Source: a phage
Sequence record: OZ335958.1
Length of the DNA: 64,000 nucleotides
Reading direction: 5' to 3' (one strand)
Shown: positions 45,744 to 46,571 of the stretch, in pieces
How positions within the stretch are numbered: position 1 is the stretch's first letter
Layout: the number at the start of each line of letters is the position of its first letter
Notes under the pieces: generated by a model
The model's database searches: none
What the model was told of the DNA's origin: nothing
The model's input: only the letters and a program-made list of their open reading frames with translations
Program-made: the position numbers and the translations under genes

Positions 45744-45820
45744 TGGTCGAGGCAGTAGGGATCGAACCTACGACCCAGGACTTAGAAGGTCCTTGCTCTT
45801 CCTTCTGAGCTATGCCTCGG
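45744..45820 (-). tRNA. tRNA-Arg (anticodon UCU)
   Basis: Cloverleaf folded by hand; anticodon loop CUUCUAA; CCA encoded. Confidence 0.8.
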
Positions 45821-45823
45821 ATT

Positions 45824-45898
45824 TGGCGGACGTGATAGGATTCGAACCTATAACCAATCGCTTAACAGGCGATCGCTCTGCCATTGAGCTACACATCC
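45824..45898 (-). tRNA. tRNA-Asn (anticodon GUU)
   Basis: Cloverleaf folded by hand; anticodon stem AUCGC/GCGAU, loop CUGUUAA; T-loop UUCGAAU; CCA encoded. Confidence 0.65.
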
Positions 45899-45903
45899 AA
45901 ATT

Positions 45904-45989
45904 GGTGGGGAGTGATGGAGTCGAACCACCCGAGTCGCAATGACAATGGATTTACAGTCCACACCGCTACCTCTACGGGATAACTCCCC
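45904..45989 (-). tRNA. tRNA-Tyr (anticodon GUA), type II
   Basis: 86 nt; anticodon loop CUGUAAA; long variable arm; CCA encoded. Confidence 0.65.
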
Positions 45990-45997
45990 AAATTAAT

Positions 45998-46073
45998 TTG
46001 GTGGCCCTGGGTGGAATTGAACCACCATCTGGCGATTATGAGTCGCTTGCTTGAACCTTCCAGCTACAGGGCC
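45998..46073 (-). tRNA. tRNA with CAU anticodon (Ile2-type or Met)
   Basis: Anticodon loop CUCAUAA; T-arm GGUGG-UUCAAUU-CCACC; CCA encoded. Confidence 0.65.
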
Positions 46074-46074
46074 T

Positions 46075-46150
46075 TGGTGCTGATTGACGGAATCGAACCG
46101 CCGACCTTCTCATTACAAGTGAGTTGCTCTACCTACTGAGCTAAATCAGC
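46075..46150 (-). tRNA. tRNA-Thr (anticodon UGU)
   Basis: Anticodon loop CUUGUAA; 1 nt from the preceding tRNA. Confidence 0.75.
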
Positions 46151-46155
46151 AAAAC

Positions 46156-46245
46156 TGGCGGAGGCGATAGGATTTGAACCTATGAGTCGCCGGAGCGACT
46201 GCCGGTTTTCAAGACCGGTGCATTAAACCACTCTGCCACGCCTCC
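46156..46245 (-). tRNA. tRNA-Ser (anticodon UGA), type II
   Basis: 90 nt; anticodon loop CUUGAAA; sequence recognised as T4 tRNA-Ser. Confidence 0.85.
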
Positions 46246-46247
46246 AG

Positions 46248-46321
46248 TCTCCATACAAGGATTTGAACCTTGGACCTCCTGATCCCAAATCAGGCGCTCT
46301 ACCAAACTGAGCTACACGGAG
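46248..46321 (-). tRNA. tRNA-Pro (anticodon UGG), CCA not encoded
   Basis: Anticodon loop UUUGGGA; 2 nt upstream of tRNA-Ser (dimeric precursor arrangement). Confidence 0.75.
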
Positions 46322-46331
46322 TAAATTAAAT

Positions 46332-46405
46332 TGGAGCGGATAATGAGAATCGAACTCACATCATCAGATTGGAAGTCTGAGGTAATACCATTATACGATA
46401 TCCGC
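46332..46405 (-). tRNA. tRNA-Gly (anticodon UCC)
   Basis: Anticodon stem UCAGA/UCUGA, loop CUUCCAA; CCA encoded. Confidence 0.75.
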
Positions 46406-46410
46406 AAATT

Positions 46411-46497
46411 TGGTGCGAGAAGTGGGACTCGAACCCACAAGGAAATCATTCCGCAGCATTTTAAGTGCTGTGCCTTTACCAATTTGACCATTCTCGC
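46411..46497 (-). tRNA. tRNA-Leu (anticodon UAA), type II
   Basis: 87 nt; anticodon loop CUUAAAA; long variable arm. Confidence 0.8.
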
Positions 46498-46498
46498 G

Positions 46499-46571
46499 CT
46501 GGGAATAAAGGACTCGAACCTTTGCATCCTGGAATCAAAATCCAGTGCCTTACCAACTTGGCTAATTCCCA
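46499..46571 (-). tRNA. tRNA-Gln (anticodon UUG), CCA not encoded
   Basis: U1-A72 acceptor pair, anticodon loop UUUUGAU; 1 nt from tRNA-Leu (Gln-Leu dimer). Confidence 0.75.

Follow-up and report, generated by a model that had tools for sequence, protein, structure and literature searches.

The question raised by this phage locus is whether its transfer RNA (tRNA) genes are an enlarged version of the cluster known from T4 or an arrangement already common among the relatives. The locus belongs to a stretch of 64,000 nucleotides (nt) from sequence record OZ335958.1, here called the window, and an initial annotation made from the sequence alone had described a ten-gene tRNA cluster that appears expanded relative to T4 by tRNA-Asn and tRNA-Tyr. 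We conclude, at a probability of about 0.88, that the window carries the T-even phage tRNA gene cluster in its T2/RB3-type (segB-less) allele. The window is Tequatrovirus DNA. Its ten-tRNA arrangement is an ordinary T2/RB3-like cluster that has already been described and is annotated in hundreds of genomes.

The ten tRNA genes

The tRNA finder ARAGORN places ten tRNA genes on the minus strand at 45744-46571 and none elsewhere in the 64 kilobases (kb) of the window. Their order in transcription is Gln(UUG), Leu(UAA), Gly(UCC), Pro(UGG), Ser(UGA), Thr(UGU), a tRNA with the anticodon CAU, Tyr(GUA), Asn(GUU) and Arg(UCU), with intergenic spacers of 0-10 nt. All ten also exceed the gathering score of the Rfam family RF00005, which is 29 bits, in a range of 30.2-74.1 bits. 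Nine of them reach 59-74 bits with E values of 1e-10 to 1e-14, and tRNA-Tyr is the low one. The genes are as follows.

46498..46571, minus strand: tRNA-Gln (UUG), by ARAGORN, with 67.4 bits in Rfam; the first gene of the cluster, without CCA, with a 0-nt spacer to Leu (Gln-Leu dimer unit).
46411..46497, minus strand: tRNA-Leu (UAA), by ARAGORN and Rfam; long variable arm, CCA encoded, 87/87 identical to T4.
46332..46405, minus strand: tRNA-Gly (UCC), by ARAGORN and Rfam; CCA encoded, 74/74 identical to T4.
46247..46321, minus strand: tRNA-Pro (UGG), by ARAGORN and Rfam; no CCA, 1-2 nt to tRNA-Ser (Pro-Ser dimer unit), 75/75 identical to T4.
46156..46245, minus strand: tRNA-Ser (UGA), by ARAGORN and Rfam; long variable arm, CCA encoded.
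46075..46150, minus strand: tRNA-Thr (UGU), by ARAGORN and Rfam; CCA encoded, 73/76 identical to T4.
45999..46073, minus strand: CAU-anticodon tRNA, by ARAGORN ('Met' by anticodon) and Rfam; CCA encoded.
45903..45989, minus strand: tRNA-Tyr (GUA), by ARAGORN, with 30.2 bits in Rfam; long variable arm, A73, CCA encoded.
45824..45898, minus strand: tRNA-Asn (GUU), by ARAGORN, with 74.1 bits in Rfam; G73, CCA encoded.
45744..45819, minus strand: tRNA-Arg (UCU), by ARAGORN and Rfam; CCA encoded.

The 3′ CCA is encoded in eight of the ten genes, and direct reading of the 3′ ends leaves Gln (...AUUCCCA-G-C, then tRNA-Leu) and Pro (...UAUGGAG-A-CU, then tRNA-Ser) as the two without it. In gene layout, Gln-Leu and Pro-Ser are dimer units as in T4, where the upstream member lacks the encoded CCA. 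These adjacent pairs and the missing CCA had been noticed in the initial annotation, whose ten identities and anticodons are borne out by both ARAGORN and Rfam and whose span equals the outer ARAGORN coordinates. It had suggested a run of a tRNA finder as the check, with the Asn and Tyr candidates at stake; ARAGORN keeps both with the same anticodons. It was silent on the minus-strand orientation.

The CAU tRNA is labelled Met by ARAGORN and by most GenBank records, on the anticodon alone. The G1-C72 pair shows that it is not an initiator. A full-length match is present in 5423 of 5426 complete Escherichia coli genomes at 76-82% identity, and all eight of the E. coli matches listed are annotated as tRNA-Ile. 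With the E. coli tRNA-Ile(CAU) it has in common the acceptor GGCCC...GGGCC (C4-G69 and C5-G68) and an identical anticodon stem-loop GCGACUCAUAAUCGC.

The determinants of the lysidine synthetase TilS are said, from the work of Ikeuchi et al. in 2005, to be C4-G69, C5-G68 and the anticodon stem-loop of tRNA-Ile2. As these are shared with the E. coli tRNA-Ile(CAU), the CAU tRNA is most likely of the tRNA-Ile2 type, which would be lysidine-modified and read AUA like that of T4. The Met label is probably a systematic mis-annotation. In thermodynamic folding, the CAU and Asn tRNAs form cloverleaves and Arg comes near one.

Comparison with T4 and other relatives

The order Gln-Leu-Gly-Pro-Ser-Thr-(CAU) on one strand, between the e.x genes and the trna.x/internal-protein genes, is that of the T-even clusters. 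Both flanks match T4 by blastn, e.8 at 95% and the trna.2-4 region at 83%. The window and T4 are alike in genomic position (from the e.8 side to the trna.x/ip side), in strand logic, in the first six tRNAs at 96% identity, in the Gln-Leu and Pro-Ser adjacency with no CCA in Gln and Pro, and in the stable RNA gene rnaC at 138/139. The Leu, Gly and Pro tRNAs are 100% identical to those of T4.

The order in T4 is Gln-Leu-Gly-Pro-Ser-Thr-Ile-segB-Arg-rnaD-rnaC. By blastn, positions 46054-46677 (from the 3′ end of the CAU tRNA through Gln and ~100 nt upstream) align with T4 at 96.2% identity, and 45038-45377 align with the rnaC/rnaD region at 89.9%. Between them, 45378-46053 has no blastn match in the T4 locus; this part holds the CAU, Tyr, Asn and Arg tRNAs and ORF116, an open reading frame (ORF) of 116 codons. 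Thus, T4 holds Ile-segB-Arg where the window has the module CAU-Tyr-Asn-Arg-ORF116, and tblastn with SegB finds no homologue in the window.

The tRNAs that flank Tyr and Asn differ from those of T4 as well. The CAU tRNA is identical to the T4 tRNA-Ile at 47-48 of 75 positions, and tRNA-Arg to its T4 namesake at 51 of 76, being a distinct isoacceptor gene. Because both are non-T4 alleles, the difference is a replacement of a cassette rather than an insertion. On this alignment, the module is best taken as an alternative cassette to the Ile-segB-Arg of T4, not as two added genes.

T4 is further unlike the window in that its Ser and Ile lack the encoded CCA, the 3′ end of tRNA-Ser being GUAA in T4 and GCCA in the window, with CCA also in T2. 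Its rnaD follows Arg directly, whereas ORF116 lies between them in the window. Besides having segB and no Tyr and Asn, T4 has Ile and Arg of other sequence. The simple view that T4 deleted two genes from the same backbone was also considered and rejected as too simple, since the whole block including Arg and CAU is heterologous and neither blastn nor ARAGORN finds any Tyr or Asn remnant in the T4 locus.

The same ARAGORN finder counts 8 tRNA genes at the T4 locus, 9 in T2, 10 in the window and 11 in phage JY01. As one finder was run on all loci, the comparison with T4 is like for like, and Asn and Tyr are truly missing from the T4 cluster, in agreement with the eight tRNAs that the initial annotation gave to T4. 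Its expansion claim survives in part: Asn and Tyr are extra relative to T4, but they come with the swap of a module, in a common and published allele. The framing is a reference artefact that stems from T4 having become the textbook phage.

A 1.2-kb query of the cluster matches 881 phage records, nearly all of them Tequatrovirus of Escherichia, Shigella and relatives. Escherichia phage BW-1 comes first among them, with 99.9% identity over the 1.2 kb and the same ten tRNAs annotated in the same order. Among the 60 best records, at least 17 show one colinear alignment from end to end. The same arrangement is annotated in BW-1, Sfk20, Sf24, Kha5h and others.

The segment with Tyr and Asn is covered to at least 80% in 396 phage records. 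The T4 segB is so covered in 126 records, about 120 of them at ≥95% identity. Because ~396 records have Tyr and Asn against ~120 with the T4-type segB, T4 with its segB and eight tRNAs is, by these counts, the minority allele, and the ten-tRNA form is the commoner one among the relatives.

The assignment to the T2L/RB3 type follows from the presence of the CAU-Tyr-Asn-Arg block, the absence of segB and the near identity to T2, which is 75/75 for CAU, 75/75 for Asn, 76/76 for Arg and 86/87 for Tyr. The tRNA regions of T2L, RB1 and RB3 have been sequenced and are without segB and its flanks and with tRNA-Met(CAU), Tyr, Asn and an Arg isoacceptor (Brok-Volchanskaya et al. 2008, NAR 36:2094, PMC2330249). 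Their tRNA-Ser has CCAG in T2L and not in T4 (PMC2330249), which agrees with the window sequence. The published tRNA gene counts are 8 in T4, 9 in T2, 7 in T6 and 10 each in RB3, RB14, RB18, RB26 and LZ2 (Petrov et al. 2010, PMC2993671 Table 2). The T2L/RB1/RB3 type and the window are alike in gene order, near-identical sequence, lack of segB, ORF116 after Arg and Ser with CCA.

The relatives also differ among themselves. T2 has a 133-amino-acid ORF (LC348380.1, 1986-2387 of the fetched locus) in place of tRNA-Thr, hence its 9 tRNAs, whereas the window keeps Thr. An 11-tRNA Tequatrovirus variant (JY01, Aplg8, UGKSEcP2 and others) keeps all ten tRNAs and their order and adds a tRNA-His (GUG) and ~115 nt between Asn and Arg. 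Seven of the JY01 tRNAs are identical to those of the window, including the Gln allele, while Tyr is so at 86/87, Arg at 74/76 and Ser at 85/90. In JY01 (OR995200.1, 527-716 of the fetched locus), an unannotated spacer of ~115 nt lies between His and Asn.

At the T6 locus, segB stands beside Tyr, and Pro, Ser, Asn and Arg are absent from the fetched stretch. The T6 record (AP018814.1, 1-422 of the fetched locus) annotates segB as 'serine recombinase', and its annotated tRNA-Thr is not called by ARAGORN. Genes of HNH or 'homing endonuclease' type lie inside the clusters of a51, ECO78, MLF4 and TadeuszReichstein. Across these genomes, the tRNA locus plainly looks like a hot spot for change.

Roles of the Tyr and Asn tRNAs

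The window tRNA-Tyr aligns column for column with E. coli tyrV in the acceptor, the CUGUAAA anticodon loop, the T arm, A73 and CCA. Its variable arm UUGUCAUUGCGACUCGG is 2 nt longer than that of tyrV and identical in T2, T6, rV5, T5 and one E. coli plasmid. Over the whole gene, it is 85/87 identical to T6, 95% to rV5-like phages and 85% to T5. It belongs, to judge from these identities, to a mobile, phage-borne tRNA-Tyr family.

No blastn match of tRNA-Tyr is found on any chromosome of the 5426 E. coli genomes. At 94% identity, it occurs only on ~110-kb plasmids, in 269 of the genomes. A recent capture from the E. coli chromosome is ruled out, the matches being plasmid-borne only. The one plasmid inspected, pEC881_2 (NZ_CP019027.1, 2921-3747 of the fetched locus), has an Asn-Tyr-Thr-Ser cluster beside DNA ligase and integrase genes and looks phage-plasmid-like; its tRNA-Asn is only 54/75 identical to that of the window. 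The pair of Asn and Tyr co-travels on such phage-plasmid-like E. coli replicons. The sharing of tRNA-Tyr at 85-95% among unrelated phage families and these replicons suggests a transferable benefit that is independent of the codon usage of any one phage.

Experiments on defence systems bear on tRNA-Tyr. The variable arm is where the Septu system EcB88 cuts tRNA-Tyr (Chihara et al. 2026, PMC13096335). Septu strongly restricts T4, which has no Tyr gene, whereas T2 resists it and T6 lies between the two; overexpression or amplification of the T6 tRNA-Tyr, which is detected by northern blot, restores growth (PMC13096335). The T5 tRNA-Tyr counters retron-Eco7 with its PtuAB nuclease (Azam et al. 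2024, PMC11555353).

With a T6-like sequence and the variable arm of T6 and T5, the same counter-defence role is a natural inference for the window tRNA-Tyr. By analogy, it would replenish the tRNA-Tyr destroyed by Septu and by PtuAB of retron-Eco7. No segB lies beside Tyr in the window, unlike in T6, and hence tandem amplification driven by SegB, as described for T6, would be unavailable in cis. The initial annotation had remarked that phage tRNAs can replace host tRNAs lost to anticodon nucleases; a defence role fits the literature for Tyr only, but the nucleases concerned cut the variable arm and not the anticodon.

Several points weigh against our reading of the locus. The tRNA-Tyr is marginal in Rfam at 30.2 bits (E 0.028); folded by minimum free energy, it gives no cloverleaf and does no better than shuffled sequences (z -0.9). 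The T6 tRNA-Tyr is itself cleaved by Septu (PMC13096335), so the protection is by dosage, not by resistance. No defence system is known that would make tRNA-Asn useful to the phage, and a literature search for one aimed at tRNA-Asn gave no assigned target, only the P2 OLD cleavage of Asn among several tRNAs. A scan for sigma-70 promoters gives 11 sites versus 11.8 expected from shuffles, none convincing just upstream of tRNA-Gln. As this is at background, the transcription signals are taken from T4 homology. The codon comparison sets 69 long window ORFs, picked by a heuristic, against the ORFs of one 50-kb MG1655 sample rich in ribosomal genes.

The first two of these points are softened by what is common for such tRNAs. 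Low Rfam scores are usual for tRNAs with long variable arms such as tRNA-Tyr, and non-cloverleaf folds are common for tRNAs folded without their modifications. We judge the fold uninformative given the ARAGORN call, the covariance-model call and the T6 experiments.

Codon supply is the other function supported for the cluster, beside the counter-defence of tRNA-Tyr. Relative to the host sample, the A-ending codons of the eight core tRNAs are in 1.3x-3.1x excess in the phage, led by AGA (3.1x), GGA (2.9x), AUA (2.7x), UCA (2.3x) and UUA (2.2x). The cluster tRNAs would supplement the host pool, eight of them decoding A-ending codons over-used by the AT-rich phage, while the Tyr and Asn tRNAs would serve two amino acids used more by the phage than by the host sample. 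The Tyr codons have a frequency of 48.0 versus 23.3 per 1000 (2.06x), an excess larger than that of any other of the 17 tabulated amino acids, and the Asn codons of 58.3 versus 39.5 per 1000 (1.48x), with UAU at 3.4x and AAU at 2.9x.

Taken alone, these excesses and the canonical anticodon loops of both tRNAs, CUGUAAA in Tyr and CUGUUAA in Asn, would allow that Tyr and Asn are kept purely for translational supply, raising the pools of single host isoacceptors with no role in defence. We regard this as possible though somewhat unlikely. Lys is also enriched, at 1.55x, yet the cluster has no tRNA-Lys, and T4 of similar composition manages without Tyr and Asn. Moreover, the T6 and T5 tRNA-Tyr are tied directly by experiment to the escape from Septu and retron-Eco7, and the spread of tRNA-Tyr at 85-95% identity over unrelated phage families and phage-plasmid-like replicons also speaks against it.

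For tRNA-Asn, the evidence on defence is thinner. It has the canonical loop and G73 and folds as a cloverleaf, and phage tRNA-Asn gives no rescue from PrrC170. That Asn, and His of the 11-tRNA variants, counter a defence nuclease yet to be found, rather than supply codons, is a tentative idea that we consider rather improbable. A tRNA-Thr(UGU) is present in the window as in T4, and its type is reported to suppress the toxicity of P2 OLD (PMC12445682).

Tyr(GUA), Asn(GUU) and His(GUG) make up the optional part of the locus; all three belong to the queuosine family of four GUN tRNAs, which are the substrates of anticodon nucleases of the colicin E5 type. A nuclease that targets GUN-anticodon tRNAs might be what this optional set answers, a guess to which we give about as little weight as to the previous one.

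Selection by tRNA-targeting nucleases could have left a second trace in tRNA-Gln. The gene matches that of T4, T2 and T6 at 66/74 positions, and all 8 differences are in the anticodon arm (ACTGGATTTTGATTCCAGG in the window, ATAGCACTTTGACTGCTAG in T4). They consist of compensatory stem changes plus positions 32/38 (U/U in the window, C/C in T4), the rest being identical. T2, T4 and T6 are alike unlike the window in this arm, and the window allele is carried by JY01. Allele exchange or selection on the anticodon arm could account for it.

The locus also has a history with SegB. The preferred 27-base-pair (bp) SegB cleavage site was mapped inside the T2L tRNA-Asn, a ~1250-bp T2L block encoding Met, Tyr, Asn and Arg is excluded in T4 x T2L crosses, and the region is not essential for phage development (PMC2330249). 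The window tRNA-Asn agrees with the sequenced T2 gene at 75/75 positions, T2L being assumed to equal the T2 record at the SegB site, and has a RAWTSGAAC motif at 45839. It is predicted to hold the preferred SegB target. Because Asn is such a target and the window has no segB, coinfection by a segB+ phage would lead to cleavage of the block and its conversion to the T4 form.

The presence or absence of the block could reflect selfish homing-endonuclease dynamics only, with Tyr and Asn as near-neutral passengers of a hypervariable locus. This would suit the dispensability of the region and the variety at the hot spot, namely segB in T4 and T6, the 133-amino-acid ORF in T2, endonuclease genes in several genomes and the extra His of the JY01 type. 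We find it quite unlikely, however, as the tRNAs are strongly conserved across T2, T6 and JY01 (Asn 75/75 and Tyr 85-86/87), compensatory structure is kept and an experimental phenotype is known for tRNA-Tyr.

It is very improbable that the tRNA-Tyr call is a false positive or a pseudogene. The marginal Rfam score, the fold and the labels tRNA-OTHER or tRNA-Pseudo in some records would favour it. Against it, ARAGORN calls tRNA-Tyr with GUA at the correct position, the alignment with tyrV holds column for column, and the T6 version, 2 nt different, is northern-detected and rescues phage when overexpressed. A truly new expansion, with two tRNAs recently gained by this phage as in the initial annotation, has the lack of both genes in T4 to its credit but is refuted by the relatives annotated with the same arrangement, by the same Arg-Asn-Tyr-CAU block in T2, by the papers of 2008 and 2010 and by the non-T4 alleles of the flanking Arg and CAU tRNAs.

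Neighbouring genes, expression and meaning

The tRNA genes are followed downstream by stable RNA genes and accompanied by ORFs, as listed here.

46658-47173, minus strand: ORF171, phrog_2290, function unknown; directly upstream of tRNA-Gln.
45377..45727, minus strand: ORF116, 116 codons, phrog_3355 (E 9.5e-54), function unknown; GAGG ribosome-binding site.
45266..45377, minus strand: rnaD homologue (stable 'species 2' RNA), ~94/116 identical to T4 rnaD by local alignment.
45121..45259, minus strand: rnaC homologue (stable 'species 1' RNA), 138/139 identical to T4 rnaC; marks the end of the tRNA/stable-RNA unit.
45047..45070, minus strand: terminator-like hairpin of 10 pairs, 7 of them G-C, then a T run, ~50 nt downstream of rnaC; a consensus match only.
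44519-44992, minus strand: ORF157, phrog_2280, function unknown; absent here in T4 and T2.

The rnaC and rnaD genes are downstream of tRNA-Arg as in the T-even clusters, here with ORF116 between. The rnaD homologue is conserved with T4 at both ends and divergent in the centre. To our knowledge, the function of the rnaC and rnaD stable RNAs is still unknown in T4. ORF116 starts 16 nt past tRNA-Arg and ends exactly at the start of the rnaD homology, a position that suggests a protein gene set within the tRNA/stable-RNA transcription unit. In BW-1 and T2 it is annotated as hypothetical, and nothing in the T4 locus matches it.

ORF171 is present in T2 and BW-1 and not here in T4, where trna.2 directly precedes the cluster. 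The terminator-like hairpin would be the end of the transcription unit. ORF157 is flanked by a direct repeat of ~27-40 bp (44479-44514 and 45034-45073) that is the terminator-like hairpin itself, and looks like an insertion that duplicated the terminator. T2 is unlike the window in having no ORF157 downstream of rnaC. The searches of the flanking ORFs in PHROG give only families of unknown function.

The expression model draws on the 96% identity to the Gln-to-Thr half of T4 and on the established T4 biology. Transcription of the ten tRNAs would run leftwards, on the minus strand, and yield a polycistronic precursor that also holds ORF116 and rnaD/rnaC. The host RNase P and 3′ exonucleases would cut this precursor, and the host CCA-adding enzyme would complete Gln and Pro.

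In summary, the finding itself is minor, as the arrangement is widely annotated and was dissected experimentally in 2008 and 2026. Its value is the correction of a reference bias, in that the textbook phage T4 carries the minority allele. A phage with this cluster is predicted to resist Septu-type depletion of tRNA-Tyr better than T4 and to lose the block to T4-type phages in mixed infections. It would also decode AUA through a tRNA-Ile2-like gene, one that carries the wrong label Met in automatic annotation.

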